From assembly GCF_963921235.1 (NCBI RefSeq), contig NC_086097.1, positions 20,400,001 to 20,464,000 of the forward strand: a DNA stretch of 64,000 nucleotides. Reading direction: 5' to 3'. Within the stretch, counting starts at the first letter, position 1. Each line of letters begins with the position of its first letter. Below the pieces are notes generated by a model. It worked only from the letters and a program-made list of their open reading frames with translations. It was not told the DNA's origin and did no database searches. Source of the DNA: Mobula hypostoma. Taxonomy: Eukaryota. Below are positions 3,131 through 64,000 of the stretch, piece by piece. The translations under genes and the position numbers were made by a program.

Positions 3131-3815
3131 TTATGTTCCTCCCATAACCCAAAGATTTGCTGCTTGGTAATGTTAATTATCTCCACTAAAGAGTGGTGCA
3201 GAGTTGATTGGGTTGGTATGTTTGAGAAAGTGAGACAAAACCTTTATTTGGGGGGAAATGTGAACGATGGGTTTGTTGTGACAACTTGCATTGACTCGAT
3301 GACCAAATGGCATTCTTCCATGTCATAAGGAAGCCTTAGTAATCATTAATGTGGCACAACCAAATGGAAAGTGGCACCCCTTCTATTCCATGTGAATTTA
3401 ATATAGAGGGTGGTTGCAGCAATGTTCTCGCCCCCCCCCCCATCCCCATTGTTCAGTCCCCAGCTTACTCCCAAGGGTTGCAGTTTATTTTTTATTGAGA
3501 TACAGCATGCAATCAGTCCTACCGGCCCTTCGAGCCATCCCACCCAGCAATCCTCTGATTTAATCCTAGCCTAATCACGAGACAATTTCTCAATGACCAA
3601 TTGACCTAGCAACTGGTACGTCTTTGGACTGTGGGAGGAAGCCGGGACACCCGGAAGAAAACCCTTGCAGTCACTGGGAGAACGTAAAAGCACCCTTCAC
3701 AATCTGTCCATAAGAGTTTCTATATCCTTTACACTTCTAGGCCCTGATCAAGGATCTTGACCCAAAACAGCAACTGTCCATCGATGCTGCCTGACCCTTC
3801 CCGAGTTCCTTCAGC

Positions 3816-3852
<37 letters not shown>

Positions 3853-3889
3853 CTTCAGAGTTAGAGTTGGTGAATTGGAGCTGAATTTG

Positions 3890-4200
3890 GTGACACAGTG
3901 GCATGGCGGTTTGCGCAGTGATTTACAGCACCAGCTGTGTAAGATCGGGTTTGATTTCTGCTGTTGTCTGTAAGGAGTTTGTACATTCTCCCCGTGAAGG
4001 CGTGGATTTCCTCCGGGCACTCCGGTTTCCAAAGATATACAGTTAGAGCTGGTGAGTTGTGGGCATGCTGTGTTGGTGCTGGAAGCACAGTGACACTTGT
4101 GGGCTGCCCAGCATGACCCACGCTGATTTGATTTGACTCAAGCGATGCATTTTTCACGTGTTTCAATGTGTCAAATAAAGCTAATTGTTTTAACTTTAAG
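3890..4200 (+). mobile_element. tRNA-derived V-SINE-type element (copies about 8075-8340, 12015-12290, 32505-32730, 43075-43300, 44275-44470, 61090-61360)
   Basis: tRNA-like head then core tgtaaggagtttgtacattctccccgtg...gggtttcctccgggtgctccggtttcctccca. Confidence 0.8.
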
Positions 4201-4303
4201 AATGTGATCATTAATTGCTGCTCTTGTTGGAGGTAGAGACAATTCCTGGGGAAATCGTACTTCATATTTAACCTTTCTGCATCTCCTTGTCTTGCAGGAC
4301 CCC

Positions 4304-4423
4304 ATGCCAACAATTATGACCACCGACCACCCCGCACGTCAGCTTCTGGATTTTAACCAGAAGCTCGACATCAATCTGTTGGATAACGTGGTAAATTGTC
4401 TATATCATGGGGAAGGCCCTCAG
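4304..4423 (+). CDS. XPO1: Exportin-1 first coding exon (human exon 2 equivalent; exon begins 4298)
   Basis: ttgcag|gaccccATG; MPTIMTTDHPARQLLDFNQKLDINLLDNVVNCLYHGEGPQ; donor CAG|gtgag; matches the CRM1 N-terminus. Confidence 0.95.
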
Positions 4424-4800: not shown

Positions 4801-5018
4801 CAGACAAGAGAAAGTCTGCAGATGCTGGAAATCCAAGCAACACACAGAAAGTGCTGGAGGAACTCAGCAAGTCAGGCAGCATCTATGGAAAAGAGTAAAC
4901 AGTCGATGTTTCTTTTCTGTCTGCTCCTGATGCAGGGTCTCGGCTTGAAACGTCAACTGTTCTCTTTTCTGTAAATGCTGCCTGGCCTGCTGAGTTCCTC
5001 CCGCATTTTGTGTGTGTT
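4801..5018. mobile_element. Fold-back Penelope pLTR unit with hammerhead variant
   Basis: Inverted arms (tgctggaggaactcagc.../gctgagttcctcc...), CTGATGC...GAAACGTC at 4927-4954, flanking repeats gatccgtggacca / gatctgtagacca. Confidence 0.75.
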
Positions 5019-5619
5019 GATCTGTAGACCAATGTTAGTCTGGCTTCCTCCCTTTGACCAGTTTGGCGTGGGTGAGCCTACCAAGAGCTAGAACACACAA
5101 CCTTGACTCCAGCCAAAATGGCTGTGTGGGTTACTGAGGCACCAGGCTGCTGAACCTCACAACAAGGTTGTGGTCCTCTTGGAGAATTATCACCTACATG
5201 TCATGTGAAATCCTTTGCTTGCATGAAGCTCACAGAATAAACAGTGTGTCCTTGAGCAAGGCACTTAACCACACATTGCTCTGTCTGTGTGAGGAGTGGC
5301 GCGCCACACAGTCTTTGTTCCGTGCCTTGTAAGGCGTGAAAATGCCCGACGCTGGCCTCTTAGGCCTGAGTCGATGATCCCTCTTGCTGCAGTAATAAGT
5401 GAAACTGTAAATACAGCAATGAGCACAAAGCAACGAGTGAAGAAGAAACGTGAAGAAGTGCAAAAACTGAGAGAGGTATTGGTATGCATTCAGAAACATG
5501 GCAGCTCCAGTGGGGAGGGGATGTGAAAGTCATTGGTTCAGAAGTCTGATGTGTGGGTATGTTACCAGGACTGGGAAATTGTCATTCTGAGGAAATATTG
5601 AAAAGACTGGTGTGGTTTT

Positions 5620-6482: not shown

Positions 6483-7194
6483 GTGAGTTAAGTGTCACAA
6501 ATTAAAACTATATGTTATTAAACAAGATAAAAGGGATTAAAAAAAAAAATCCTACTTGTTTTTTAAAAGGCAATAGATGAACCATTCCTCATTGCCTGTG
6601 CCTTCTGAGGAACTCAAGGGGAGCTGCTAATTGGCCACTGAACCAGAATCAAAGAATTGTCAGGGCATGGAAGGAGAAGAGACAGCTTGTCAAATCTGAA
6701 CTAGCTGTATGTCAGCGCAATCCAGCAAGTTCCACTCCAGCTCTTTTCCCCCAGAATCCTTGTCTTTCTTTCCACTTGGATATCTAGCTAACTTCCCTGT
6801 TGAATACTACAGCTGACTCTGCCTTCAGGCCTTTGTTTAATGATGTATCCCAGACCTTGCCCACTCACTCTGGAAAAACAGGTCTTTCTTGTCACCTCTG
6901 CTCTTTGACCTTTTCTGCCAATAGATCAACTCTGACCCCATTGTGGTTTTAAATACACTGCCAGATGTCTCCTTGACCTTCTCCATTCTCGCAACTGTCT
7001 CAGATTCTTCAGTCCGTCCACATGACTAGTGTCCTTTGTCCCTGGAATCATTCTCTGTTGCCCTATCACTGAATTTCTTCTACACCCACTTGGAAGTCTT
7101 TGCATGTTTCTTAAAATGCACTGCCCAGAATGGGACACAAAGCTCCAGCTGTGTTGACCAAAGTCAGTGTGAGTGTTCACATTATTTCCAAAAG

Positions 7195-7860
7195 ACCACA
7201 AGACATAGGAACAAAATTAGGCCAATTGACTCTGCCCTGCCATTTGATTGTGGCTGATTTATTTTCCCTTGTAACCCCATTTTTCTGCCTTCTCCCCATA
7301 ACCTTTGATGCCCTTACCAATGAAGTGACAATCTACCTCTGCTTTAAATATACCAAATGATATACATCTTCCCCAGCCATATGTCTCAATGAATTCCATG
7401 GATCCAACACCCTCTGGCTAAAGAAATTCCTCCTCATCTCTGTTATAAAAGGGACATCCTATTCTGAGGATGTAGCCTCTGGTCCGAGACACTCCCACTA
7501 TTGGAAACATCTTCTCCACGTCCAGTCTGTCCAGGGCCTTTCAGTACTTGATATGTTTCAATGAGATCCCTTCTCTTTCTTCTAAACTCCAGCGAGTACA
7601 AGCCCAGAGCCATCAGATACTCCTCAAATGTTAACCCTTTCATTTCCAGGATCATCCTCATGAATCTCCTCTGGACCCTCTCCAATGCCAGCACATCCAT
7701 TCTTAGAAATAGGGTCCCAAAACTGCTCTCAAATTGCAAACGTCCTTCCTTCTGTTCTCCAATTGTAAAGTCCAGAGCCCTATAAGTCTTTATAATCACT
7801 ATCTCAGTCTGCCCTGCTGCTTCTCAATGAACAATGCACAAATACTCTGACTTCTCTTTT
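7195..7860 (-). mobile_element. CR1 3' fragment
   Basis: LERVQRRFMRMI...LGLYSLEFRR.RRDLIETY and 3' UTR. Confidence 0.88.
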
Positions 7861-8161: not shown

Positions 8162-8199
<38 letters not shown>

Positions 8200-10844
8200 T
8201 TCTCCAGTTCCCTCCCACAATACAAAGATGTATTTCTAGGTTAATGGGTCATTGTAAATTGTCCTGTGGTTAGGTTAGGGTTAATCAGGTTTGTCAGGGA
8301 CGCCGGAGGACCTCCTCCGCACTGTATCGCTAACTAAATAACAAGTTAGGAGCTTTTGTTGAAAGACCCAATGCAGTTCTTGGCATTAGTTTTTCTTTCA
8401 GGCTCATGTAGATGGAAATCTTGAAAAGAGAAACAGGTTTTCTTCTAGGAACCCAGAGGTAGGCTGCCAACACTTCAAACATTAAAGGATATGCCACAGA
8501 TCTGTATCTCTTTTTTTTAAATGCTAAAATAGAAATTGCTGGAAGAATTCACCCAGTCAGCAGCTTCTGGGGAAAGAGAAAGCTGTCAACAGTTGGATCA
8601 GAAACCCTTTCCCTGAACTGGGGAAAGAGTGGAGATTTATGTTTTACAAAGCACAACTGAGGGCGGAGGGGAGGTGCAGATGAAAGACAGGTCAGGTGCT
8701 AAGGAGCAGGAGCATTGATCGTCACCAGGAAAATAAGATACAAGCATGACTGTGAGAACAGGAGCCTTGGATCCCACACCACCAGGTTCAGGAAGTTATT
8801 AGAACATAGAAACTTACAGCACATTACAAGCCCTTCGACCCACAATGTGCCGACCATGTAACCTACTCTAGAAACTGCCTAGAATTTCCCTAGCACATAG
8901 CCCTCTATTTTTCTAAGCTCCACGTACCTATCTAAGAGGCTGTTTTAAGATTTTATCCACTTCCACCACTGCCGGGGACAGTGCATTCTATGCACCCACC
9001 ATTCTCTGTGTGGGAAAATATTACCCCTGACATCCCCTCAGTACCTGTTTCCAAGCCCCTGAAAACTGTGCCCTCTCGTGTTAGCCATTTCAGGCCAGGG
9101 AAAAAATCTCTGGCTATCCACATGATTGATGCCCCTCATAATCTTATACACCTCATCCTCCGTCGCTCCAAGGAAAAAAGGCCAAGTTCACTCAACCTAT
9201 TCTCATAAGGTACGCCCTCCAATCCAAGCAACATCCTTGTAACTCTCCTCTGCACTCTCTCTGTAATGCCCACTATATTTATTATTCAACAATCATCAGG
9301 CTCCTGAACCACTGTGGCTATCCTAACTCGCCTCAACGCTGAACTAACTCTACAACTATTATTTATAGTTTTTCATAACTTCTATTGTATTTCTTTAGAT
9401 GTTTCTAAATGCCTGCAAGAAAACTAACCTCAAGATGGGTATATGGTGACATAGACAGTACTTAAACAATAAATGTACTTTGAATTTGATCTTGGAATGG
9501 GAAACGTTGAGAAATCGGTTCACCTGACATCAGAGAGATTGGTTTTCATTCCAGAAGGTTGCAAAAGTGCCTAGATGAAAGATAAGACGTACCTTCTTCC
9601 ACGCTTGGTTCCATAACCCTTATTTAACACTCCCACCCAGATGGCACTCTCACCCAGCCTTTGGGAAGAGGGAGTTCAGGCAATTTGCTATATCTGGAAA
9701 AAATTGTGTTGTATCTTTCGCGGATTCAGGAGGCCCTAAAGTCCTTTGCGGTGGTGGAATTCTTTGGAAGCATAGCCTGTGTGAATGAGGAACAGGGATT
9801 TGTGTTTACTTATCCAAGGGAGAAGGGAGGATTGAGGAAAGAGGTTGGGATAAGTGGCATTTAGTCCATCTTCATAACTTAAAGCTTGGTTTTCACAATG
9901 TGTTCTTTAGAACCACAACATTAAGTGACCGGAGATTTTAACTTTGAAACAGAGAATTCTGTGAACAGCCCTTCTCAAGTTGTGCATCGACACCTACTGG
10001 TGGAATGGCTTTGCCCAACTTTTGTCTTGAGGTGGAGAACTAATGTGTTTTGATTTGTTTAGAGATATGGCAGGTTAGCAGGTCCTTCTGGCCCAACGAG
10101 CCCAAACCGCCCAATTAACCAGCTGACCCATACATCATTGGTATGTAGGAGAAAACCTGCTCGATCACGGGGAAAATGTACGCACTCCTCACAGACGCTG
10201 GTGGAATTGAACCCGAGTCACTGGCGCTATAGTAGTGTTATGCTAAACTCGATGTTACCAGGCCCTCAGAGCTTGTGTTTTGTCGTTGAGCCGTTGTTTT
10301 GTCTGGGGTCCCCATGGTGCAAACGGAAACTAACATTGTTTTCACCCAGTTGATAGACCATAAGGTGTTATTTGGTCCATCCCTCCATGCAGTTGTCCTC
10401 CTTGACCGTGTTGGCCCCTGATGACCCAATTAGAGAATGGAGATGGTCTTGGACCATCAAGTCCCTTCCTTTCCACTGCCACCGTTGTCTTCACCCGCAT
10501 CCTCACCCCAGGAAGTTGCACATTCAACCAAATCCCACATTGGTAAGGTCTTTGAGTTGTGTCTGGGTGAGGTCCTGTGTATGGTTCTGATGAAGCTGTG
10601 TGACTGTGAGGTGGTTTGTGGCATTCTCTTTTTTTTTTTTTGTCACTGTCTATAAACCTGTGGTTGCCCGCAGCTCTCCAGATGTCACTGAGGCTGTGCA
10701 AGTGTTGGACGCTGTTTGGTTTAGTGCAGCTAGTGACCGTCCTCAGCTGCCAGTCAGCATGGGGACCAGTTGTTTTGCCTGGGGTAGACTCCCAAAGTAC
10801 TGCAGGATGGGCAAGAAGGCTCTGTCAGTGACTTGTGGTAAGTG

Positions 10845-12494: not shown

Positions 12495-13280
12495 TAACCA
12501 CAAGTCAGAAGAGCAGAATTAAGCCATCCAGCCATCAAGGCTGTTCCGCCATTCCATCATGGCTGATTTATTTTCTCTCTTGATCCGATTCTCCTGCCTT
12601 CTCCCTGTAACCTTTGACACCCTTATCAAGAACCTATCAGCCTCTGCTTTCAATATACCCAATGTCTTGGCCTCTACAGCTACCTGTAGCATTGAATTCT
12701 ATAGATTCTCCATTCTCTGGCTGAAGAAATTCCTCCTCATCTTTGTTCTGACAGGAGGCTATTTTATTCTTGAGGTTGTGCTCTCTAGTTCTAGATTCTG
12801 CCACTACTGAAAGCATCCTCTCCATGTCCATACTATGCAGGCCTTTAAATAATCAGTAAGTTTTAGTGAGATGCTCCTCGTCCTTCTAAACTCCAGTGGG
12901 TACAGGGCAGGGCTATCCTTCTTAAAGTCCAGCACCTCCTCCATTAATGTGGGATCATTCCTAAGAAACCTCCTCTGGACCCTCTCTATTGTCAGCACGT
13001 CCATCCTTAGATAAAAGGCCCAAAACTGCTCAAAATAATCCAGATGTGATTTGACCAACATCTTATAAAACCTCAGCACTGCAACCCTGTGTTTATATTC
13101 TAGTCCTCTCGAAGCGAATACTAACATTGTATTTGCCTTCCTTACCACAGTCTCAACCTGCAAGTTAATCTTTAGGGAATCCTGCACACAGACTTCCAAG
13201 TCCCTTTGCACCTCCTGATTTTGGAATTTTCTTCCAGTTTAGGAATAGTCTATGCATTTATTCCTTCTACCAAAGTGCTG
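12495..13280 (-). mobile_element. CR1 3' fragment
   Basis: QRDLEV.VQDSLK, GLEYK, IERVQRRF motifs and 3' UTR. Confidence 0.88.
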
Positions 13281-15337: not shown

Positions 15338-16790
15338 TCAAACACTTCCTGTACTTGTATCAGCTTCAGTGGGGGACCGCCATGCAGAATATGACCCGTC
15401 TACAACCACTCTTTGTCTTCTGTGGGCAAGCCAGTACTTGATCCACAAAGCAATGCCCCCTTGGATTCCATGCCTCCTTACTTTCTCAATAAGCCTTGCA
15501 TGGGGTACCTCATCAAATGCCTTGCTAAAATCCATAAACACTACATTTACTGCTCTTCCTTCATGAATGTGTTTAGTCACATCCTCAAAAAATTCAATCA
15601 GGCTGGTAGGGGATGATCTGCCCTTGACAAAGCCATGCTGACTATTCCTGATCATATTATACCTCTCCAAATGTTCATAAATCCTGCCTCTCAGGATCTT
15701 CTCCATCAACTTACCAACCACTGAAGTAAGACTCACTGGTCTATAATTTCCTGACTATCTCTACTCCCTTTCTTGAATAAAGGAACAACATCCGCAACCC
15801 TCCAATCCTCCGGAACCTCTCCCGTCCCCATTGATGATTCAAAGATCATCGCCAGAGGCTCAGCAATCTCCTCCCTTGCCTCCCACGGTAGCCTGGGGTA
15901 TGTTTCATCCGGTCCCGGCGACTTATCCAACTTGATGCTTACCAAAAGCTCCAGCACATCCTCTTTCTTAATATCTACATGCTCAAACTTTTCAGTCTGC
16001 TGCAAGTCAGCACTACAATCACCAAGATCCTTTTCCATAATGAATACTGAAGTAAAGTATTCATTAAGTACCTCTGCTATTTCCTCTGGTTCCATACACA
16101 CTTTCCCACTGTCACACTTGATAGGTCCTATTCTTTCACATTTTATCCTCTTGCTCTTCACTTGTAGAATGCCTTGGGGTTTTCCTTAATCCTGTCTGCC
16201 AAGGCCTCCTCATGGCCCCTTCTGGCTCTCCTAATTTCCTTTTTAAGCTCCTTCCTGTAGCCTTAGAATCTTCTAGATCTCTAACATTACCTGGTTCTCT
16301 AATCCTTTTGTAAGCTTTTCTTTTCTTCTTGACTAAATTTATTACAGCCTTTGTACACCATGGTTCCTGTACTCTACCATAACTTCCCTGTCTCATTGGA
16401 ACATACCTATGCAGAACTCCACACAAATATCCCCTGAATATTTGCCACATTCCTTCCGTACTTTTCCCTGAGAACATCTGTTTCCAATTTAAGCCTCCAA
16501 TTTCCTGCCTGATAACCTCATAATTCCCCTTACTCCAATTAAACACTTTTCTAACTTGTCTGTTCCTATCTCTCTCCAATGCTATTGTAAAGGAGATAGA
16601 ATTATGATCACTATCTCCAAAATGCTCTCCCACTGAGAGATCTGACACCTGACCAGGTTCATTTCCCAATACCAAATCAAGTACAGTCTCTCCTCTTGTA
16701 GGCTTATCTACATATTGTGTCAGGAAACCTTCCTGAACACATCTAACAAACTCCACCCCATCTAAACCCCTTGCTCTAGGGAGATGCCAA
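15338..16790 (-). mobile_element. CR1 LINE ORF2 fragment (endonuclease end, linker, RT N-terminus), frameshifted
   Basis: FLTQYVDKPTRG..LDLVLGN, SDHNSI, KSPGPD, VPEDWRVADVVPLFKKG, SLTSVVGKLME, QHGFVKGRS, DFSKAFD in three successive frames. Confidence 0.93.
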
Positions 16791-16799
16791 TCGACTTTA

Positions 16800-17330
16800 T
16801 GAGGGGTGGGTCATACCTTATGAGCTTGATGAATTTTTTTTTGAGAATGTGACAGTTTATTGCTGAAGGTAGAGTAGTGGACATGATGCATATGTGTATA
16901 TATAAGATGCTTGATAAAGGTTTCCCATGGTAGGATCCTTCAGAAAGTCAGGTGTGGAATCCTAGGAAACTTGGCCGTGTGGATACAGCTTTGGCTTTCC
17001 CATAGAAGGTAGTAAATGGAGAGTATTGTGCCTGGAAAATGGTGGAAAGTGGTATTCTGATCTGGTTCCCTGCTCTTTGTGATTTTTATAAATGACTTGG
17101 ATGGGGAGGTGGAAGGGTGGGTTAGTAAGTTTGCAGATGACACCAAAGTCGGTGGAGTTGTGGATAGTGTGGATGGTAGTTTGTTGCAATGGGACATTGA
17201 CAGGATGCAGAACTGGGATGAGGCAGCAGATGGAACTCAATCCAGAAAAATGTGAAGTGGCTCATTTTTGGAAGGTTGAATTTGAAAGCAGAATACAGAG
17301 TTCATGGGAAGAGTTCCTGGGAGGTGTAGA
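16800..17330 (+). mobile_element. Older CR1 RT fragment
   Basis: tttataaatgacttggat...agtaagtttgcagatgacaccaaa (FINDL...SKFADDTK). Confidence 0.85.
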
Positions 17331-18377
17331 TACACATTCTAATTATTTTGTACATGTGGAGCATCTCATCCTACCATTGAGGTGCTGAATTCAAAGTGTT
17401 TGATCCCTTGGACAAAATACTTCTGAGTAAACAATGTGAATCTTTTCAAAACTCCTTAGTTCGCTACACAGCATTTTCTTTGCCTTTTGGCCTGAAACCT
17501 CATCCCCCTCTTCCTCCACAGATCTGAGTTCCTCCAGCAGATTATTTTTTTTGCTCCCCGTTAACAACTCCGGACATTGGGATCAAACCCAATTGCTGGA
17601 GACAAGGACACTGCTTCCCCACTGTGTTGCCTTGTCACTTAGTTGCCTGCCAAGTTTGTGCACACTCATCCCTGCCTTTCCCATTTGAGAATGCCTCCGA
17701 TCTTGGCCTGCCAATTGGGAATTGTTACACACATCAATGGAATATTGAGGTTTTGATTGTATTACACTCTGGCCTGGTCTTCTTGGAGTTCTATGCACTT
17801 AAACTTTTTTGCACCTTTTCATATTATTGCCAACCTTTTCTGGACACTTTGTGATCTCTGCCTTTGGCTTGCCATCCATCTCCAAAGTTTCCAGGTATAT
17901 CCCGAGAGCATATTGATGCATCTGATCTTGTATTGGTTACGGTCATGATGGGTGACCGTGTGTGTGTATGTGTGTGTGTGTTGCTTTGTCCATAGTAAAT
18001 TACCTTTCGGGGAAAGCAGAGATTATTTTTCACATGCTATTAGAGGAATTATTAATCACTAGCGTGGTTTTGTTTGGGTAGGAATATTGGTGAGGTACGT
18101 TAATTGGAGCACACTATGTTTCCCTGGAGTTCTGTCAGGGTTATTTTGCACCCACATGAACAAGAAGCTGCTGAGAGGTCAGCTCACCTTCAGTGCTGAC
18201 CTCCCAGCCCAGTCCTTGGACAAACTGGAACCCATAAACTCCTGAGAGCAGTGAAAGAGCTGAGTGTCGTAGTTAGCCATGCTTCCAGCATCTTTGCCGA
18301 TTAGTATCGGCACTTGTGTATCAGCTGTTATAATAATGAACTGTTAGAGTTGTTTCTTCTAATATTGTGTCAAGCTG

Positions 18378-18525
18378 ACACACAAAATGCTGGAGGAACT
18401 CAGCAGGTCAGGCAGCACCTATGGAAAGGAATAAGCAGTGGATTTTTCAGGGTGAGGTGCTGAGTTCCTCCAGCATTTTGCGTGCGTTGCTCTGGATTTC
18501 CAGCACCTGAAGAGTCTCTTGTGTT
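18378..18525. mobile_element. Fold-back Penelope pLTR unit (centre deleted)
   Basis: acacaaaatgctggaggaactcagc ... gctgagttcctccagcattttgcgtg inverted arms. Confidence 0.7.
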
Positions 18526-20307
18526 GGTGTCTATATTCAAGCTGATTGTCAGTCTAAGCATTTCTCCCTCAAGTTCCACCAGGATTCACCTCCAGCAGAA
18601 ATAATTCTTCTGGTCTCTATAGGGGAAAAAAAAAACCCTCATCTTTTCTGAGTTAATATTCAGTATCTCAAAAGAAGGGATATGATAACCTTTTTGGTTT
18701 ATTCATTCACAAACTGAGGGGTCACTAGCAGGCCAATGCTTGTACTTGATCATTTGATCTCACAATGAGTGACTTATCAGGCTATCTTGGACAAAACCTA
18801 CCACATTACCGTGGCTGTGTAGTCACTTAGGTCAGACTGGTTATGGACAGCAGAATTCATGACAACACACACAAAATGCAGATCGAGTAGTATCTATGGA
18901 GGGAAATAAATATTTGATTTTTCAGTCCTGATGAATGGTCTTGGGCTGAAATGTTGACCATTTATTCCCCTGGATCCCAGGTCTCCTGACTTTCTCAATG
19001 AGCCTACCATAAGGAACCTTGTCAGATGCCATACCTAAAATCTATATACACCACATCCACTGCTCTGTCTTCATCAATTTGTTTCATCACTTCCTCACAG
19101 ACTCTGGCTCATGAAGCACAACCTGCCCCTCACAAAGCCATGCTTCTCCAAATGCTTGTAAACCTGATGTCTAAGGTTCCTCTCCAGTCATTTACCTGCC
19201 ACTGACATAAGACTCATAGGTCCATAATTCCCAGAATTGTCCCTATTACTTTTCTTGATCAAAGGAATAGCATAACAAAGGATAATCCTACGAACATTGT
19301 CAGAACAACTGACGCTCTGAATTTCCTGTTTTTTTTCTCCCCATCCTTGCACTTTAAGTCATCGCAATGCAATCTATGAGACTCAGCCCACTGAGTCTGC
19401 CAACCTACCATCTCACTAGCCAGATCCCCCAATTCTTCTTGGTTGCCCCCTTCCCCTGCTTCGTCTGTCCTTCATTTTCACACAAGAGTCTGTGACAGGT
19501 AATTGACATGTAACACACCCATTTTAAAGATGTGGAAGGAAACTTGTGCGGTCACAGGGAGAACTTGAAAACTCCACCTCGATAGCACCAGAAGTCAGGA
19601 ACGGAGCCAGGCTGATGGATCTGTGAGATGCTGTTTCTACCAACTGCACTGTGTATTGCACCCTGTGTGTGGACCATCTCAAATGGACGGAGGAATTTAT
19701 TAGCTCTGTTTTGACCCCTGGATTCCCACATATGTGGTTCTAGGTTAAAATAGTTAACAACGGTTGGTGGAAGTGATATGACAGCATGCGATTTGATACT
19801 CCCAGAGAACAAATGGGGTTTGTATCTAACTCTCAGATATGTGCAATGTACGCAGGGCCCTTAGCGTTGTTGAGGGTTTCTCTCCTCCACCCCACAATCC
19901 CTTTGACCCCTTTATCATCAGGCAGGAGGTACTGCAGCATTAGGACGAGAGCTGTTAGGGTGAGAAACAGCTTCTCTCCCCTCCCCCGGCTGTAGGACCG
20001 TTGAACTCCCTTCCACCACCCGCGTCTCATCACTTACGAAGTGCCAATAGCGTTATACTGTTTACTTTTTAACTTGTGTTGTAAATGCACCTGACGCTAA
20101 ATGTCAGTCTTCTGGAATATATTTTATTATTTGTTACTTTATTTGTGGAAGTGTTACGCTGTGTGAGAGTTATATGGACTGTCTTGCACGTTGATTCAGA
20201 GCATTGTTTCGTTTGGTGGTCTCGTATGTGGTTGAATGGCGCTGAACTTGGAATGAAGGATTTTCGTTGGGTTTGTATTTTAAACTCATTCCTCTTTCAA
20301 ATTGCAG

Positions 20308-20774: not shown

Positions 20775-20966
20775 AACACAAAATGCTGCAGGAACTCAGC
20801 AGGTCAGGCAGCATCTGTAGAGGGGAATAAATACTCGACGTTTTGGGCAGAGTCCTGGTGAAGGGTCTCGGCCGGAAATGTCTACTGTTTATTCCCCTCA
20901 ATACGTGCTGCCTGACCTGCTGAGTGCCTCCAGCATGCTGTGTGTGCTGCTCTGGATTTCCAGCAC
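20775..20966. mobile_element. Fold-back Penelope pLTR unit
   Basis: Same inverted arms; decayed hammerhead at 20851-20886. Confidence 0.75.
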
Positions 20967-24876: not shown

Positions 24877-24883
<7 letters not shown>

Positions 24884-43452: not shown

Positions 43453-44032
43453 ATCTGGACTGTATTGTCGCTAGTTAGAAGGTGGTAATCCGTGCGGTTT
43501 CACTTACTTTTAACTGATTCAAGACCGTGGATTGCTCTGAAGGAACAGGGCAGCACTAACAGCATCATAAAACCAAGCTGCCAAAGTTGGGGTGGTGGGG
43601 AGGGGTGGGGGTAGGAGTTACAAGCTGGCAGGTGATAGGTGTAACCAGCTCAAGGGGAAGGTAGGCTGAAAGGGGATGAAACTGGGTGAGGATGGGTGAA
43701 AGAGATAAAGGGCTGAAGAAGAAGAATTCAGATAGGAGAGGCCAGTGGACCATGGAAAAAGGGGGAGGAGGGTGGGAAACCAGGTGGAGGAGGTAGCCTA
43801 TCACCTGCCAACTTGTACTCCTACCTTTCCATTTTAGTCCTGATGTAGATTCCCAAAACATTGACTGTTTATTCCCCTCCATCAATGCTGCCTGACCTGC
43901 TAAGTTCCTCCAGCATTTTGTGTGTTGCTCAAGATTTCCAGTATCTGCAGAACCTCCCATGTTTCTGTGATACGGAGCTTGTTTCGGCATCTAATTTTAG
44001 ACTTTCTATCATTTCTCCCCCCCTAACTTCAG

Positions 44033-50714: not shown

Positions 50715-50964
50715 GTAAGTGCACGCGGTTCATCCTAACCACCTGGACTGATCCGTAGCTCCAGTTCCAATTGCAGTGCTTCTCTCAAAGGTTTCGTCCA
50801 CTGCTGTAAATGAAATTCATTTAGGGCACTGATGGTTTTTATTGTGGTTTTTCTGTTCTCCAGTTTATGTGAGCTGACATCCTGTTGCCTTTTATCACCT
50901 AACACACTTTATCAAAGTTGCTGGTGAACGCAGCAGGCCAGGCAGCATCTCTAGGAAGAGGTAC

Positions 50965-51000
50965 AGTTGACGTTTCAGGCTGAGACCTTTCGTCAGGACT
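50965..51000 (-). ncRNA. Minimal hammerhead motif (antisense copy)
   Basis: reverse complement agtc CTGACGA a aggt-ctca-gcct GAAA cg TC aact; one stem I mismatch. Confidence 0.7.
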
Positions 51001-51370
51001 AACTGAAGGAAGAGCTAGTAAGAGATTTGAAAGTGGGAGGGGGGGAGATCCAAAATGATAGGAGAAGACAGGAGGGGGAGGGATGGAGCCAAGAGCTGGA
51101 CAGGTGATCGGCAAAAGGGATATGAGAGGATCATGGGACAGGAGGCCCAGGGAGAAGGAAAAGGGGGACGGGGGGAAAACCCAGAGGATGGGCAAGGGGT
51201 CTAGTCAGAGGGACAGAGGGAGAAAAAGGAGAGAGAAAGAGAAAGAATGTGTATATGAATAAATAAGTAACGGATGGGGTACGAGGGGGAAGTGGGCATT
51301 AGCGGAAGTTTGAGAATTCAATGTTCATGCCATCCCACTTTCAAACCTCTTACTAGCTCTTCTTTCAGTT

Positions 51371-51406
51371 AGTCCTGACGAAGGGTCTCGGCCCGAAACG
51401 TCGACT
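51371..51406 (+). ncRNA. Minimal type I hammerhead ribozyme motif (Penelope pLTR), core intact
   Basis: agtc CTGACGA a gggt-ctcg-gccc GAAA cg TC gact: stem I agtc/gact, CUGANGA core, stem II hairpin, GAAA, GUC triplet (predicted cut after 51402). Confidence 0.8.
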
Positions 51407-51619
51407 GTACCTCTTCCTAGAGATGCTGCCTGGCCTGCTGCGTTCACCAGCAACTTTTATGTGTATTGCTTGAAATTCCAGTGTCTGCAGATTTCCTGGT
51501 GTTTGCCTTTTACCACCTTCTGCTTCTGGGGAGGCACACTGCATAACTTTTTGGGGAGAATGTGCATGCTGGGCCAAACCACCCTGTCCCTGATGGAGTG
51601 CAGTGTAGGGAAGTGTATG

Positions 51620-52146
51620 GTTATGTACTTCGGAGGTTCCTCCTGAGTGCATGTTTCTGGACTTCTGTAGCTCATCTAATTCAAGGTCTGACGTGTTGTG
51701 CATTCAGCGATGCTCTGCTGCACATCACTGTTATAATACGTGGTTATTTTAAGTTACCGTTGCCCTTCTTTAAGCTTGACCCAGTTTGGCCATTCTCCTC
51801 CGACCTCCCTCAGTAACAAGGTGTTTCCGTCCACAGAATTGCACTCACTGGATGCTTTTGGTTTCTCACGCCATTCTCTGTGAACTCTAGAGACGGTTGT
51901 CGGTGAAAATCCCAGAAGTTCAACCATTTCTGAGATACTCAGACCACCCCATCTGGCACCAGCAGTCATTCCACGGTCAGAGTCAGTTAGATCACATTTG
52001 TTCCCCATCCTGATGTTTGGGCTGAACAACTGAACCTCTTGACCATGTCTGCGTGCTTTTATGCATTGAGTTGCTACCACATAATTGGCTGATTAAATAT
52101 TTGCATTAATGAGCAGGTGTACCTAATATAGCGGTTACTGAGTGTA
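51620..52146 (-). mobile_element. Non-autonomous Tc1 deletion derivative (same family as 42057-42599)
   Basis: MGNKCDLTDSDRGMTAGARWGGLSISEMVELLGFSPTTVSRVHREW is a Tc1 transposase N-terminal HTH; right TIR ends ...actgagtg-TA. Confidence 0.8.
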
Positions 52147-53027: not shown

Positions 53028-55144
53028 GTAGTTGGTGGTCTGATCAGCGGAAATGTGACTTCTAACTTTTATTTCATTTAGAGACAGCGCGGTAACAGGT
53101 CTTCGCAGAGCCCGTGCCTCCCAGTTAAACCCATGTGACAAATTAACCTGCTAACCCTGACTACGTTGGAATGTGGGAGGAAACTGGAGCACCCAGGCTG
53201 TCACAGGGAGAGCATACAAACTCCTTGCAGTCAGCAGCAGAGTTAAACATGGAGTTAACCGTAAGACCAAACGATATAGGAGCAGAATTAGGCCATTTGT
53301 CCCGTCGAGTCTGCTCTGCCATTTCATCATGGCTGATCCATCTTCCTTCCCAGTCGCAATCTCCTGCCGCCTTCCCATATCCTTTCATACCCTGACTAAT
53401 CAAGAGTCTTATCAAACTCTGCGTTAAATATGCCCAATGACTTGGCCTCCTCAACCGCCTGTGACAACAAATTCCACAGATTTACCGCTCTGCGAACCTG
53501 TGGAATTCTCCTAATCTGTGTTCTAAAGGTTGTCCTTGTATTCTGAGTCGGTACCCTCTGGTCCTAGACCCTCCCACTACTGGAACGTCCACTCTGTCTA
53601 ACCCTTTCAACATCCTGTCTGAGATGTAAGCCTGTGTGTCCCTTTGCTCAGTTTTCTAGAAGGGGCCACGGGCCCCCAGCGTTCTGAGTTCATGGCCTGT
53701 GTTGTCAACTCAACCACAGCTACAGCTAGTTTGATGGTAAAGTATGCCGGGCACAGCTGTACGTCTGGTTTCTGATCCATTTGCCCCACTCCTGCGACGC
53801 CTATGTTTTGGACAATTGGGTACGTGCAGGCGTACCTGCTCCGAGCAGCCCAGTCTAAGGTCTATCCTGATGGTGTGAAATGGCTGTGTAGGTGTGGTAT
53901 GGATTATTCTCTGAGGCAGTAACATTATCTCTGTTCTGTTTTTCCAGCCAGGAGATTACTTGTTTCAAAAATGTCACAATAAAAGAAAGAGTGGAACCTG
54001 TCAAATCTAATTTTATTGGATGTATTGCATATTCGTGAGTTCAGACTCACTAATGTTAGTCTTCATTTCCCACCCACGTTTGCCCATGAACTGTTTCAGA
54101 GGGCAATACAGAGATTGCTCCATCTAGACTCCCATATCGAGCAGACCAGGTAGGATGGCAGTTAGTCTTCCCTGAAGGGACTCAGTGGACATTCGGTACA
54201 ATATTTTTATTCCAGGTCTGATGCTGAATTTGTATTCATTAGCTTCGCGATGAGCTTGAGTACAGATTCATGTTCTGTTTTCTTCAACTAGTTCAGACAT
54301 TTAAACCTTTCTCCAGCATCTTCAGACTCTTGTGTATTTAGGACTTATTTTGTTATTCTATGAACTTTGAGTACTGACATATCCATTCCCCAAGTTGCAA
54401 ACGTAACGTTCTTTGATGTTTGCTCTCAATGCTGCCACGGGTGCTGACCTAACTCTAAATTCTATTACAACCAATTGTCATGACAAATCTCTCTTCTAAA
54501 TGGGTGGTGTAAGTACATGGTGGGAGATTGTTTGATATGCCGTAGTGAGTGTCCTGTGTTCTAATTTTATTGCCTTGTGAACAGCACTGGATTAAAAAAA
54601 AAAGCAGGAGTGTTTCTGATTTGGAACACACCATTTTTGGGAGTTGAACTGAATGCTGTTTTGCCCTCCTTGGGTACAAGTTATTCTGATTGCTACCACT
54701 GACCCTCCTATAGGCATCTAATACGGAGACAAGATGTGAATGAAGGCATGACAGAGTCACAAGGCTAGAAAAACATAATACTCCACACTCTTCCCCTCTG
54801 TTCGTGTGAAAGATTTATCCAGATCCCCCTTGGATTTGGACTGTGTGTAATTGCCATATATTCTCCACCCTTCCTGCGTTCCTCTGATTCAACAAAACAC
54901 ATCAGTTGATCATTAAACCTCAAACACGTGCTTCAAAACAAGAAAGAAGTGCTGCAAATGTGCTTGGCAGAGTACAAATGGCATTTTAAAATGCGCAAGT
55001 TGTATTGTTCTTCAGTGAATTTGGATTAGGATTAATGGGCATAGACTCTTTAACATTGTGTGCTTATGAAAACACAGGGCAGACAATACAAAGGTTCAAA
55101 ATGTTGTATTTTCAAGTATTTAATTTTTCTTTCTTCCCCTCTAG

Positions 55145-56762: not shown

Positions 56763-58361
56763 GTGAGTTGCATTTTACTTTCAGTCTGGTCCCTTCCCAT
56801 GCAACGTTATGGGTGTAGAGTACGACGGAAGGCTCCTTCAGCAAGGTGCTGGGTTAACGTTGGAGCACTAGGCAAGGAGAAGGGAGGTGGGATGTGGTAC
56901 AAGTCTCAGCAATGCTGTTTAGATCTGACTCTGTCGCTCGTAGAATGTTACAGCACAGCTACAGGCCTTTTGGCCCGTGATGTTGTACTGACCCTTTGTC
57001 CTACAATCTAACCCAACATAGCCCTCCATTTTCTATCATCCAGTGGTTCTATTTACCATCAGAGAACGTATTCCATATACAACATGAAATTCTTACTCTC
57101 CGCAGACATCCTTGAAATGGAAAAAACCCAAAGAATGAATGAAAGAAAAAACGTAAGATCCCCAAGTCCCCTGCCCCCTTCCACGCATAAGCAGCATCAA
57201 TCCTAACCCCGCCCCGCACTTACTCTAGCATAAAGCATCAGCATTCCCTCCACCCACCATACTAGCAACAGCAAAGCCCCCAAAGAGAGACCATGGTCTA
57301 CAGTACGTCAAAAACTAACTGTTCGTTCCAACAATTTGACGTCCCTCAGGCTCCCTATGATGTGACCTGAACTGAGCACAATATTCCAAGTGTGGTCTAT
57401 CCAGGTATTTATAGATCTGCAATGTTACATTGCAGCCCTTGAGCTCAGTGCTTTGATTAATGAAGGCCAATACACCGTATGCCTTCTTAATCCTAACAAC
57501 TCTACAGCAACTCTGAGGAGTCTATGGACATGGACCCCAAGATCCCTTTGTTGCTCCACACTTGATGTAGAACTGAAAGGTGCGTAGCTCTCTGACGGAG
57601 GAGTTTTCTGTACTGTCCCGAGGGGTCTCGGCCTGAAACGTCGTCTGTTTGTCCATCTTCATAGATGCTGCCTGACCTGCTGAGTTGCTCCAGCGTTTTG
57701 TGGGTGTGTGTGTTTTACATGCTAGCCTTCATTGGTCAGTAGGTTGAGGACAGGAGTTGGGATGCCACCAGATGCTGGTGAGATCGTGCTTGGAGAATTG
57801 TGCACAGTTCTGATCGCCCATCTATGGGCAGGATGTCAGTAATCTGGAAAGGGTGCAGGAAAGATTCGTGAGGTTTGTTACCGGGACTGGATGGTTTTGA
57901 GTTCCAAGGAAAAGCTGGAGGTGCTGGGATATTTTCCCTGGAGCATAGAGGCCTGAAGGGTGACCAAGGAGGCATAAAAAATCATGAGGGGCATGGATAA
58001 GGTGGATGATCCCAGTGCAGGGAAATCTTGAACAATAAGGACATAGACACGGTGAGAGGGGAAATATTCAGAGAAGACATGAAAGGCAGGCTTTTCACAC
58101 AGACGGTGGTGGGTCTGTGGAGGGGGCTGCCAGAGGGAGTGGTGGAGGCAGATGCAGTTAAAATCCTCTAAAGACATTCGAGCAGGTATGTGGATAGGAA
58201 AGGCTTTGAGGAATATTGGTCAAATACAGGCAAGTGGGACCAGCTCAGGTGGACATCTTAGTCAGCATGGATGAGATGGGCTCTTTCAGTGCTGTGTAAC
58301 TCTTTGACTCCCACCACCCTCGTTCTAAACTTCATGTTTAATGGATTCCTCTCTCCACCAG

Positions 58362-58524: not shown

Positions 58525-58974
58525 GTAAGTGCTGATAGATGAAAACGTAACGTGGTGAAATTGATGCCCTGTTCCCTGAGCCGTGCTAGTGGGTGGGGTG
58601 GTGAAGATGTTGGAAAGTGTGCCCTTCCTGAAGAAGGGTCTTGGCCAGAAACGTTGACTGTTTACTCTTTTCCATAGATGCTGCCTGGCCTGCTGAACTC
58701 CTCCAGCTTTTTATGTGTGTGTGTTGCAGTATCTTTACAAGATGGCTGACCCCAGCCATTATCAATACTCCTCAGGGATTGTCTGCCTGGTGTCAGTAGT
58801 CATATAATCAGGACTTGTGATTTGCACCGGCTGCTCGTACGACCATCCACCACCTTCATGTGACCCTGATCAGGGTCCGGGGCGGGGTGGGGGGAGGGTT
58901 GCTAAGCAGGTGCTATACCTGGGAAGGAGCACCTTACATCTCCTTTGATAGAGACGTATCTCCACCCCATCACC

Positions 58975-59225: not shown

Positions 59226-60113
59226 ACCCCACCACCAGTTTTATTTAATTTATTTATTGGCCCCTCCCCCCATTATATGCTCATTTTTTTTTGGTTTTGT
59301 GCTTCGTGAAGCATTTAGTTTGGTGCTTCAAGAGGGTTGCATCCATCCTGAAGGACACTCCCTGTCAGGATTGTGCCTTCTCCCCATTACGTACCGGATG
59401 CCCACTCACAGAGCTTTCCCCTCCGCCCTCAGGCTTCTGAATAGTCCGTGAACACCACCTCACTTTTCACACATTCCTTACTGGAATTTATAGTAACTTT
59501 TTCATGTTTTGCTCTGTAGTGCTGTCACAACACAAATCTGGTATAAAACCTGATCCTGATTCGCAGGTACAAAACACAAATTGGCCCTCCAGCCCATCGA
59601 GTTTGCACTGATCGTTAACCACCCACTTTATACCAACACTTCATTTAATCCCCATCCCTCCCCAGCCGATCCTACTGCTCAGCCGCACAATCGGGGCCAT
59701 CCTCTATTGGACAGGTGATCTGCCAACCCACACGGTTTTCAATGTGGGAGGAAATGAGTACCCAGATGAAACCCATATAAGACATAGGGGCATAATTAGG
59801 CCATTCTGCCCGTCAAGTCTCCGCCATTCCATTATGGCTGATTTATTATCCCCCTCTACCCCATTGTCCTGCCTTCTCCCTGTGATCTTTGATCCCTGAC
59901 TAATCACAAATCTATCAACCTCTACTTTAAATATACCCAAATGACTTGGCCTCCATGTCTTTCAGTGGCAGTGAATGTCACAGATTCACCACCCTCTGGC
60001 TAAAGAAATTCCTCCTCATCGCTGTTTTAAAGATGCCCTTATATTCTGATTCTGTGTCCTTGGGTCCTAGGCTCCCCAGTATAGGAAACATCCTCTGCAT
60101 GTGTACTTGAAGC

Positions 60114-60169
60114 CAGGGGCTCCCAGCCTGGGGTGTTGGTCCAGAGCAGAAAAAAGGTTGGGAACCCCT
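60114..60169. mobile_element. hAT MITE within CR1
   Basis: caggggctccca...tgggaacccct, same family as 360-439. Confidence 0.7.
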
Positions 60170-61416
60170 CATCTAAGCCTTTCAATATTTGAAAAGTTTC
60201 AGTGGGGTTCCCCCCCACCCCCACCTCGTCCTTTAAACTCTGGTGATTACAGGACCAGAGCTATCAAGTTCTCCTCGTATGTTAGCCCTTTCATTCCGGG
60301 AACCTCCTCTGGACTTTCCCAATCCCAGCACATCCTTTCTTAGATAAGAGGCCCAAGACTGTCCACAGTACTCAAGGTGAGACCTCACCAGTGCCTTTAT
60401 AAAGCCTCAACATTACATTCTTGCTTTTATATCCTTGTCCTCTTGAAATGAATGCTAACATTGCATTTGCCTTCCTCACCACCGACTCAATCTGGTCGGA
60501 GGGAGGATGTGCAGACACCACTCGGACAGTACCTGAAGTCAGGATTGTGCCTGGGTCTCTGGAGCCACAGAACAGTGGCTCTGCTAATTATAACTCTGTG
60601 CTGCCCCTTTTCCTTGTTCTTCTAATTTGCGATCCTGTCATACTTGGGCGAGTTGGAAACCAGTTTCCTGGTAACAGCTGTTTAAACATTTTGGTGATGT
60701 GTTAGCCCAGCAAAGCAACAGAAGGACTAGGAGGACAGGAGAACCGAGTAGAGATTAGCAGTGATACTAAAGGGTGGAGGGACAGGAGCAGCTGATCACC
60801 CACTATTCTGATGAGTAGAACAGTTATAGCGCTGGACAGGCATTTGGCCCACAATGCTGTGCTGATCTTGATGCCAACTTGTACTAAATGTTCTCCTGTG
60901 TATTGTCCATATCCCTCCATTCCCCTCTTAATCATGCATTTCTGTGACAGTGCCATGGGAGCATAGCAGTTAGTGCATCACTCTACAGTGCCAGCTGAAA
61001 TATCCTCTGGTTCCTGTTAGCTTTATTGAAGAAATTAATGTTTTGAGTTCAGGATTTAACCTTCGAAACATTTCATTTACTTAAATAGAAATACAGTGTG
61101 GAACAGATCCATCCAGCCCAACGAACCACACCAACTAGCAACCCACCTATTTAACCCTAACCTACACACAGGACAATTTACAATAACCAGTTAACTTACT
61201 AACTAGTAGGTCTTCGGACTGTGGGAGGAAACCAGAGCACCCGGAGGAAACCCACACATTCACGGGAAGGAAAGTACAAACTCCTTTACATATGTCGTCA
61301 GAATTGAGATGCTCTGAGCTGTAATAGTGTCGCGCTAACCGCTACACTACTGTGTTGCCCCGAATGGTGATTTTAATCATTGTTATTAATCACTGTTTTT
61401 AAATTTTCATTTGTAG

Positions 61417-61513
61417 TGCACAGATCAAAATTTTTGTGACTGGCTTGTTCAGCTTAAACCAAGACATTCCATCCTTCAAAGAGCATTTGAGAGATTTCCT
61501 TGTACAGATAAAG
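61417..61513 (+). CDS. XPO1: Exportin-1 exon 24 (last coding exon lies beyond the window)
   Basis: gtag|(D)AQIKIFVTGLFSLNQDIPSFKEHLRDFLVQIK|gtacg, 97 nt; no EFAGED-type terminal exon seen before 64000. Confidence 0.96.
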
Positions 61514-63394
61514 GTACGAGTTCAAAGCTACAAATTTTAGTGTTACAGAAACATTATGCTCATCTCTCCGAACACTTCGGTCTTGTAGCTAAGCAACATG
61601 AATTTGTAAATGAGAATGTCTGTTCTACTGCTGTTCTTAACACCATGAGATTCAGTGCCAGATGTTACACTTTATTCTCTGAGATCTGGGTATCACTGGC
61701 AAGGTTGCATTTACTGCTCATTCCTTATTCCATTGGAGAAGATGGTTAAAAGAAAAAAAAACTGCAGATGTTGGAAATCTAAAATGAAAATGCTGGAACC
61801 ACTTCTGACAAGGAGTCTTGAACCTGAGACATTGACTAGTGTTTCTCTCCTGAAGATAACGACCTGACCTGCTGACTGTATTCAGCATTTTAGTTTTATT
61901 TTTCAAATCTCTATATAATGCCCTCTGCAAATGTAGAAGTGTTATAACAGTACTAAATCCAAATTCAGTAGTGGTTCCAGTTTTTCACATCTCTTTATCT
62001 AAACTCTTCTTGAATATGTTTAATGACTTGACCCTGACTGCCCACTGTGGTATCCCTCAGCTTCACAATTCCCTGAATAGAAAACCTCTCTTCATTTAAG
62101 AACTAAGTGGTCTACCCCATATCCTTAACCCAAGGCCCCACATACTGGACTTCATATGTTTCATGTGTTCAGTTCTGGTCGCCTCATTGTAGGAAGCTTT
62201 AGAGAGTGCAGAGATTTACCAGGGTGCTGCCTGGATTAGAGAGCATATTTTGAGGGAAGTTTGAGTGAGCTTTTCTCTTTGGAGAGAAGAAGGGAGACAG
62301 GTGACTTGGTAGAGGTGTATAAGACAAATCAAATTCAAGTTTAATTATCATACATGAATACAGCTGAACAAAACACCATTTCTTTGGGGCCAAGGTGCAA
62401 AACATGCAGAGCACATTCAAGATTGCGAGCAAAGAAACGTAGTCACAGGGAAAAAAACACATATATAGTCCAAAATCCCGAGCGACATGTCCCACAAATT
62501 GTACATGTTCCCGGCCGTGCACAGCCACTGCAGTCCAATCTGTGATTCCACCGATCGAACTGTGGAAGGCAGCACTGGGGAGGCCAGCCCCCAACCGAGC
62601 ATGGACCATCTCTGACATCCCTCTCCTGAATGTTGCTCCACCAAACGAGGGAAGCAGGCCAAGCGGCACCTTACATTATCAATGTCCAACAGGGTCTTGC
62701 AAATGCAAGAGATGTTAAGAGGCAGTGATTTAAATGCTGCCTGGGCCTTTTTCTCAAAGGAAGAAATGTTTAATATGACGGGGGGCACAATTTTGAGGTG
62801 TTTGGAGGAAAGTGTAGGGGTGATGTCAGAGGTGGTGCAAGTTTTTTTTACATTAAGGTGGTGGGTGTGTGGACTGTGCTGCTGGGGTTAGTGGCAGAGG
62901 CAGATATGTTAGGAAGATTTAAGGGACTTAGGCACATGGATGAAAGAAAAATTGAGAACTATGAGGTAGGGTTAGTTTGATTTTGTTGGAGTAGGTTAAA
63001 AGTTTGGCACAACATCCTAGGCTGAAGGACCTGTACTGTGCTGTGCTGGTCCATGTTCTTTATATTTGGGGGTGTGTACCTTGTAAGCCAGAGTCATGAG
63101 CCACATGTTAGTCGGTCCAGTTGTACCCTTTCCCCTGATCAATAGAGCTGGCCAAGGCTGGCATGGTAACACACGCTCAGCACTAGTCAGCAGCAAGCCT
63201 AGCCTGAGTAGCTAAAGCACGCAGAGAGGTTCCAGTGTGACGTGGTCAAACTGAGAGACCATGCAAGCGTTCAGCAGAACAGTAGGATGTGGACACGCGT
63301 ACCACAGGCAGTTCTGGCCTCACTGAGGAAGGATAGAGTAAATGGCAGGGCTAGTGTATGAGGAGATGGGTGCCTGCATTCGTATTGACTTTCA

Positions 63395-64000
63395 GTACGC
63401 TGGATGAACTCAGCAGGTCGGGCAGTATCAGTTAGAAACGATGAGTCGACGTTTTGGGCCGGAACCCTTTGTCAGGACTGAAGAATGAAAGATGGGGACG
63501 GGTTTGAAGAATGCTTGTAGCTTCAGTTGAAAGATCACTAATTTTAAAGCCAAAGGGGTGGGGGAGTGGAAGCATTGATGTCATAGCCCTGAAAACAATG
63601 GGTGGTAGAAGAAGCAGGCGGAACCATGAGGGAGCTGGGGGAGGGGGTCGAGTGACATAGGGACAGGGGAAGGGAGGGGCAAGGAATTACCAGAAGTTGG
63701 AGAATTCTATGTTCATACCAAGGGGCTGGAGACTACCTAGACGGTATATGAGGTGTTGCTCCTCCAACCTGAGTTTAGCCTCATTGTGGCAGTAGAGGAG
63801 GCCATGTATAGACATATCTGAATGGGAGTGGGAAGCAGAGTTGAAGTGGGTGGCTACTGGGAGATCCTGTCTGTTGTGGCGGACGGAGTGGAGGTGCTCG
63901 ACGAAGCGGTCCTCCAATCTGCGTCGGGTTTCACCGATGTAGAGGAGGCCGCACCGGGAGCACCGGGTGCAATAAATGACCCCAACAGACTCACAAGTGA
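63395..64000 (-). mobile_element. Penelope-like retroelement 3' end: GIY-YIG endonuclease C-terminus, 3' UTR and pLTR with decayed hammerhead
   Basis: Minus-strand frame 63998->63687 reads TCESVGVIYCTRCSRCGLLYIGETRRRLEDRFVEH...VATHF...LEEQHLIYRLGSLQPLGMNIEFSNFW* (VIY...YIG motif, CxxC); hammerhead-like repeat at 63444-63479. Confidence 0.9.

Follow-up and report, generated by a model that had tools for sequence, protein, structure and literature searches.

Minimal hammerhead motifs in the exportin-1 introns of Mobula hypostoma as probable 3′ ends of an amplified Penelope-like retrotransposon

The exportin-1 locus and its motif copies

The 64,000-nucleotide (nt) stretch of Mobula hypostoma DNA considered here (RefSeq assembly GCF_963921235.1, contig NC_086097.1, positions 20,400,001 to 20,464,000 of the forward strand; hereafter the window, numbered from its first letter) contains a plus-strand exportin-1 (XPO1/CRM1-like) gene that is host to a dispersed family of 36-nt minimal hammerhead ribozyme motifs. 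These motifs are almost certainly the 3′ ends, or pseudo-long terminal repeats (pLTRs), of a young, extremely amplified retrotransposon of the endonuclease-containing (EN+) Penelope-like element (PLE) group, and the hammerhead is of the minimal type associated with PLEs.

The mapped XPO1 coding exons span 4304–61513, with the last coding exon ~2.5 kb past the window end, and none of the mapped exons is overlapped by a repeat match. The best named match of one exon is a Mobula exportin-1-like protein (94%); this label alone fits either an XPO1 orthologue or a paralogue. The original prediction, made from the sequence of the window, had placed the motifs throughout the XPO1 introns, and this holds for 17 of its 18 sites, which fall between coding exons. 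The remaining site, at 3744, lies 5′ of the exon that contains the ATG and probably sits in an intron of the 5′ untranslated region (UTR), because a pyrimidine tract and AG precede that exon in the manner of an acceptor flank. No clear CpG island marking the XPO1 start was found within 20 kb upstream. From position, and solely from position, the motifs would be expected to be present in host pre-mRNA. A 7-nt pyrimidine repeat, in 45 copies, occupies 28338–28647, a short distance upstream of the XPO1 exon at 28895.

The copy at 51371 comprises a 4-bp stem I, the CUGAnGA box, one extra nucleotide, a 4-bp stem II with a 4-nt loop, the GAAA box and a palindromic 15.1–16.1 step. The proposed type I minimal-hammerhead anatomy, a CUGAnGA...GAAA...UH core with stems I and II, is present in strict form at 51371 and 23880, and two features of minimal hammerheads, an extra nucleotide that separates position 9 from 10.1 and a palindromic 15.2–16.2, are found as well. 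At each of the 18 predicted sites the motif itself or a degenerate version is present, with 24–36 of 36 letters identical to 51371–51406; the motif starts lie at most 6 nt from the predicted positions, on the minus strand the number given coincides exactly with the lower boundary of the motif, and the downstream repeat that was said to follow them is present (repeat families D1/D6/D11). An nhmmer profile seeded with seven window copies, which match by construction, was run on the window and on the reversed window; it gave 29 matches in the former, of which 17 are plus and 12 minus and 27 have E<0.01, and no match in the latter. Among the 11 matches beyond the 18 sites, most or all of the motif is gone and several are inverted arms, and seven inverted pairs account for 14 of the 29 matches. 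The resulting density, ~1 motif per 3.6 kb, agrees with the earlier estimate of one per 3–4 kb. The copies are as follows.

51371–51406, plus: fully intact 36-nt motif, the sole strict sense-strand copy; predicted cut between 51402 and 51403
50899–51486, both strands: inverted pair of young PLE 3′ ends, 50899–51334 minus with 3′ UTR and 51330–51486 plus
23800–24241, minus: young 5′-truncated PLE copy with 3′ UTR, strictly intact motif at 23880–23915 (H17=U) and tail; antisense to XPO1
63393–64000, minus: PLE copy with decayed motif at 63444–63479 (G8 and G12 changed); homology runs past the window end
3740–3833, plus: motif in decayed form with its tail; lies 5′ of the first XPO1 coding exon
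4820–5033, both strands: short inverted pair, minus arm 4820–4913 (tail) and plus copy 4923–5033 with A9 changed
8533–8611, minus: strongly decayed copy outside the 18 sites, found by the nhmmer profile
18378–18508, both strands: two tails in a short inverted pair, with most of the motif replaced
18854–18971: inverted pair; plus copy at 18924 with core letters intact, stem II 2/4 and palindrome broken
20776–20966: inverted pair; plus copy at 20851 with A6 changed
30182–30423: inverted pair; minus copy 30272–30307 with A15.1 changed, plus copy at 30326 with core intact and stem II 2/4
30596–30713, plus: old-type copy with three changes in the core
33815–33963: inverted pair; plus copy at 33888 with A6 and G12 changed
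36001–36097, plus: decayed copy, A9 changed
36303–36408, plus: decayed copy, G12 and A14 changed
43836–43946, plus: decayed copy, 5-nt deletion in stem II
57609–57711, plus: decayed copy, core disrupted, stem I 1/4
58624–58734, plus: copy with core letters intact, stem I 2/4 and stem II 3/4
61801–61892, plus: decayed copy, G8 and A14 changed
17487–17548 (plus), 30818–30853 (minus), 42945–42995 (minus), 43331–43379 (plus): tail-only fragments found by the nhmmer profile

Another young inverted PLE pair (L053:671-1468) lies in the last XPO1 intron, just past the window.

All core letters are retained in six of the 18 copies, and the core, both stems and the palindrome together in two, 51371 (plus) and 23880–23915 (minus), so that 16 of 18 fail the strict test. 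A Rfam scan gave no hammerhead covariance-model match at gathering threshold in the window, and around 51371 none of the hammerhead families reached E≤10. A tandem array with a hammerhead in each unit was also sought in the window and none was found, the copies there being dispersed or inverted. Because most window copies are broken and, as described below, decay neutrally, they appear for the most part to be ribozyme-derived and not active ribozymes.

The Penelope-like element and its spread through the genome

A link between the motif and a PLE is visible within the window, where a GIY-YIG coding remnant on the minus strand (63693–63998) lies directly 5′ of the 63444 motif (84% amino acid identity, E 1e-50; PF01541 at 23.5 bits, above the Pfam cut-off of 22.6). 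When the genome (G000, 3.48 Gb) was searched with the 51371 copy and walked upstream from the motif, a pyrimidine-rich 3′ UTR, a GIY-YIG domain, a CX4CX2C linker and a reverse transcriptase (RT) were met in turn. The unit is ~3.5 kb long and consists of a ~140-nt leader after the predicted cut site, one open reading frame (ORF) of ~1,015 amino acids (aa) with RT, linker and GIY-YIG, a ~300-nt 3′ UTR, the 36-nt minimal hammerhead and a ~100-nt tail. The natural copy at locus L043 is complete and contains frameshifts; in it the partial-tandem repeats (pLTRs) are 967 nt long and 96.6% identical, the predicted cut sites of the two motifs are 3,510 nt apart and the ATG follows the upstream cut site by 138 nt; L050 likewise has two same-strand motifs, and L024 has inverted arms of 2.4 kb. 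The window remnant, the genomic copies and L043 all link the motif to GIY-YIG and RT sequences upstream, in keeping with the Penelope-like pLTR origin that had been suggested for it.

The coding sequence is informative about the kind of PLE involved. In L048 one 860-aa frame holds the RT together with a GIY-YIG at its C-terminal end, with DKG and YIDD visible and the CX4CX2C linker at aa 727; the RVT_1 match (E 9e-6, 25.9 bits) is under the 29.6 cut-off. DKG occurs in 107 of the 120 homologs listed and the Cys linker in 100 of the 108 among them with the YxG motif, and homologous proteins are present in other cartilaginous fishes and in invertebrates. By inspection, the endonuclease has CCHH-type residues, in that C-x2-C separates GIY from YIG and two His follow downstream, and 5′ truncation with an inverted 5′ partner is frequent. 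By the criteria of PMC8557442 these features mark the family as an EN+ PLE with a Neptune/Nematis-type Cys linker, an assignment by sequence motifs that covers Neptune and Nematis together; no clade-labelled reference protein was among the homologs found. The dispersed pattern on both strands arises because most insertions are 5′-truncated, often with an inverted partner.

The inverted pairs also bear on the idea that the short (120–240 nt) pairs and solo tails form a separate non-autonomous family, retrozyme- or MITE-like (miniature inverted-repeat transposable element-like), which is mobilised as such. Many old copies do start at or near the motif, the window has seven inverted pairs, and seven minus-then-plus pairs within 1 kb were counted by eye among the first 100 exact matches. 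However, the junctions vary from pair to pair, the truncation points vary continuously, no tandem arrays of the unit occur in the window, and inverted 5′-truncated partners are described as typical of PLEs (PMC8557442), so a separate family of this sort is improbable. In two unselected young copies (L009:808-912 and L034:2343-2452) the first letters are those of the stem I 5′ strand, an anecdotal observation that points to stalling of the RT or to microhomology where the motif begins.

The very large ribozyme-derived population foreseen in the original prediction is seen by three criteria: 46,118 exact 34-mers genome-wide (control 0), 154,569 matches within three mismatches (control 0) and 100,750 matches that keep the core intact with a 13-nt spacer (control 103). 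The window is typical for the genome, since it holds three copies within three mismatches versus 2.85 expected from the genome mean. In 40 kb of neighbouring DNA there were 10 profile matches, versus 29 in the 64-kb window; by extrapolation only, from the window and these 40-kb flanks, the genome would hold ~10^6 remnants, decayed ones included. Among the 61 best RT-EN matches scored, 57 are free of stops at 98–100% identity, and the open frame around 16 of them is at least 1,019 aa long. Uninterrupted frames at this identity indicate that the family is very young, and it may be active.

The element is covered by contigs of four public runs that are not recorded as RNA. These contigs carry no start, end, strand or level information; in three of the four runs the summed contig depth at the motif and tail is several hundredfold above that at the 5′ part of the ORF, and loose contig ends occur at both borders of the 36-nt motif and ~103 nt downstream of the cut site. 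A joint that goes back 3,508 nt, found in three of the four runs, fits genomic tandems equally with circles and was not used.

Source constraint, predicted folding and the fate of inserted copies

Whether the motif has been kept by the element can be judged by comparing old-type and young-type copies (29 and 46, respectively, or 75 of 97 unique matches in 306 kb of non-random sequence, shorter matches having been dropped). The two majority consensuses differ at one of 36 motif positions, the free N7, versus 22 of 91 downstream columns (Fisher p=0.004). Within the old copies, core cells are changed as often as downstream ones (36/288 versus 124/1,028, p=0.84), which indicates that single old copies decay neutrally. 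Because of this consensus contrast and the equal change of core and downstream cells in old copies, the motif was constrained in the source lineages, which retained it, and decayed neutrally after insertion, inserted copies having failed to retain it.

Other families in the genome add to this picture. A longer-spacer pattern gave 2,630 matches versus 1,575 in the control, and among the 100 such matches listed there are several recurring families that share the core and have a 6–7-bp stem II of unrelated sequence, with pairing judged by eye; they are known from the letters of the core and stem II alone. Examples are at G000:C1 90375225-90376021, 59454757, 90519098, 33976016, 127619219-127619540 and 43329381/43329501. 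Inverted pairs occur in some of these families; in one, two copies on the same strand are separated by 120 nt, an arrangement that may be retrozyme-like. Together, the constraint between old and young consensuses and the differing yet pairing stem II of other families support a function for the motif.

Folding predictions give an idea of how such a function might work. The minimum free energy (MFE) structure of the 51371 monomer is a rod of −11.9 kcal/mol in which core positions G5–G8 are predicted to pair with CGUC at the cut site, versus −7.9 kcal/mol for the open hammerhead with stems I and II; the monomer fold is no more stable than those of shuffled sequences (z −0.96). No common fold of the 3′ tail was found across three copies compared. 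Given this anatomy and published work on minimal hammerheads (PMC4209133; PMC6765202, as far as their available text goes), a solitary motif would be unable to close stem III and would fold into the inactive rod. Where transcription runs through a partial-tandem copy, the RNA would contain two motifs at a distance of 3.5 kb, and these could pair via the palindromic ACGU to form a double hammerhead that would cut slowly after GUC. Cleavage would process, and possibly circularise, the element RNA, and this processing would keep the motif under selection in source copies. Since insertions end ~100 nt past the cut site, the integration template would have been uncut at the 3′ motif, or circular or more than unit length, and not the simple linear product. 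Once inserted, solitary copies would decay neutrally, and those in XPO1 introns would be passengers, very probably without cutting of the pre-mRNA. Taken as a whole this explanation is likely the right one, and for one part of it, slow dimer cleavage as the selected function, the analysis tilts modestly in favour.

Several observations weigh against this explanation. The copies behind the old consensus are heterogeneous and were taken from non-random loci, and the consensus letter at 11.1 is uncertain. Stem covariation, which the original prediction had named as a check, failed to appear: within the family there is no two-sided compensatory change at 10.2–11.2 or in stem I, pairing is restored in one of 100 listed variants at 10.2 (by eye), and change of the stem I partner, counted by eye, was 9/73 versus 5/27, with no compensation signal. 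The modelled double-hammerhead dimer, at −14.7 kcal/mol, falls far short of the stability of the dimer MFE (−32.1 kcal/mol), these being nearest-neighbour energies that leave out core tertiary contacts. A footprint of cutting is faint, in that tails apparently start at the cut site in 715 of 84,083 cases (<1%), versus 467 (+2), 407 (+4) and 187 (−4) at control positions; this excess is small, CpG decay together with one further change could account for 43 of the 100 cut-site matches listed, and the self-complementarity of stem I gives microhomology at the cut site that confounds the footprint. Furthermore, 39,151 of the 46,118 exact copies (85%) have G10.1–U11.1 instead of the conserved G10.1–C11.1, which is found in the other 6,967, 51371 among them. 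The U11.1 change is fixed in the source, because its frequency far exceeds CpG decay at other CpG sites in 100 listed matches. A G10.1–U11.1 change slows hammerhead cleavage. No reaction rates for G10.1–U11.1 were found in the available text of PMC544870 or PMC11300833. Even dimers of minimal hammerheads are described as having low activity (PMC4209133), and cleavage is reported for one of nine Xenopus retrozyme dimers in the accessible part of a recent preprint (bioRxiv 10.64898/2026.07.22.740005).

Some of these points would fit a motif that is kept for a non-catalytic role, as a structure in the pLTR for protein or RT recognition or for dimerisation, or that merely rides along, with negligible cleavage. 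On this account the dominant G10.1–U11.1 lineage would show that catalysis is dispensable, the monomer rod sequesters G5–G8, the footprint is minor, and Naiads proliferate without canonical hammerheads, parasitism by the hammerhead being raised by the authors who described them (PMC8557442). Yet N7, the one position at which the old and young consensuses differ, is the free position in a catalytic core, other genomic families share the core despite unrelated stem II sequences, and G–U still pairs. A non-catalytic role is thus unlikely, while retaining appreciable weight, and slow cleavage of element RNA in source copies is preferred.

A different question is whether host pre-mRNAs are cleaved, in cis or in trans, by intact copies that lie in introns in sense orientation, with effects on XPO1 or other genes, or whether such copies have been co-opted. 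There are ~10^5 intact copies available for dimerising, and domesticated intronic hammerheads exist in amniotes (PMC6155905). Among the 18 predicted sites 14 are sense and 4 antisense (p=0.03), yet all profile matches divide 17 versus 12 (p=0.46); there is no sense depletion, and harmful cutting predicts the opposite of a sense excess, a single gene giving little power on this point. The one strict sense copy in the window belongs to the pair at 50899–51486, whose arms of 131 nt are 94% complementary, so that 35 of 36 nt of its motif are predicted to be paired outside the motif, and it has no intact partner in sense orientation close to it. The neutral decay seen in old copies and the ordinary number of near-intact copies in the window also argue against cutting of host RNA, which is very improbable, and the motif copies are very probably inert in XPO1, on which there is no sign of an effect. 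A related reading, hardly less doubtful, is that ~10^5 core-intact motifs let solitary intronic copies form dimers in trans that would cleave host pre-mRNAs at a low rate, with the sweep of U11.1 and the self-masking inverted partners as attenuations that eased spread through genes; this too we regard as a long shot. If it were true, ribozyme load would be a selective force on a vertebrate transcriptome, and the family, with its natural paired alleles, would allow a test of what the hammerheads do in PLEs.

The window also contains other repeats. A fragmented long interspersed nuclear element (LINE), partly inverted and presumably CR1/L2-like, occupies 15341–17216 (RVT_1 E 2e-16, weak Exo_endo_phos_2). 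A second abundant dispersed repeat (families D3–D16; 1626–1943, 7176–7642, 12541–12846, 26851–27076, 33638–34118, 40769–41233, 53255–53585 and 59777–60088) probably represents LINE 3′ ends, and a short family, D18 (3591–3663, 32584–32656, 53133–53205 and 61181–61253), resembles what we take to be the core domain of short interspersed nuclear elements. A near-perfect, MITE-like inverted repeat at 38345–38795 (arms of 193 nt, 94% complementary, spacer 65 nt) is outside the hammerhead family. Weak matches to DDE_3 (22315–22668, minus, E 5e-4) and to an HTH domain (51757–52092, minus, E 0.002), both under cut-off, suggest remnants of DNA transposons.

Relation to known hammerhead-bearing elements

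In the literature search no paper was found on PLE hammerheads in sharks, Mobula or cartilaginous fish, the word 'shark' in one matching paper referring to the ribozyme's name alone, and one supplement file of PMC4209133 contains no shark or skate term; other supplements may list shark examples. Retrozymes have been reported in one chondrichthyan (bioRxiv 10.64898/2026.07.22.740005, accessible part). The role of PLE hammerheads has been called unclear (PMC8557442, available text).

As far as the available text of PMC4209133 describes them, the minimal hammerheads of metazoan PLEs, including fish Xena, Poseidon and Neptune, share with the ray motifs the type I topology without stem III, the palindromic 15.2–16.2, the extra nucleotide between 9 and 10.1, the short helix I, the presence in both pLTRs ~3 kb apart and the prevalence of solitary copies or close opposite-strand pairs. 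The ray motif differs from that of Schistosoma in its 4-bp stem II (7–8 bp in Schistosoma), and from the minimal hammerheads described there in the G10.1–U11.1 pair of its dominant lineage. There are at least 46,118 exact copies in the ray, versus ~4,000 in coelacanth and ~9,000 in X. tropicalis found with a different descriptor (PMC4209133), and this abundance exceeds the ~37,000 copies quoted for Naiads (PMC8557442).

At the protein level the ray element resembles the EN+ PLEs Neptune and Nematis, as characterised in the available text of PMC8557442, in its single ORF with RT followed by a C-terminal GIY-YIG, its DKG, its CX2-5CX2C linker (which is absent between RT and EN in Penelope/Poseidon) and its CCHH-type residues, and also in its partial-tandem pLTR and inverted 5′-truncated partner. 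Animal non-LTR (long terminal repeat) retrozymes, as presented in the accessible part of bioRxiv 10.64898/2026.07.22.740005, likewise have a type I hammerhead related to PLE pLTRs, but they are tandem non-coding units, whereas the ray copies are dispersed, truncated ends of a coding element. The amniote intronic hammerheads (RECK and others; PMC6155905, available text) are similar in being type I hammerheads inside a host intron, and differ in that they are described as conserved across species at given genes, whereas the ray copies are minimal, repetitive and decaying. Since PLE pLTRs with minimal hammerheads are already known, the ray case adds scale and tractability and is not a new class; its many apparently intact ORFs and two natural 10.1–11.1 variants make it a good system in which to test the role of PLE hammerheads.

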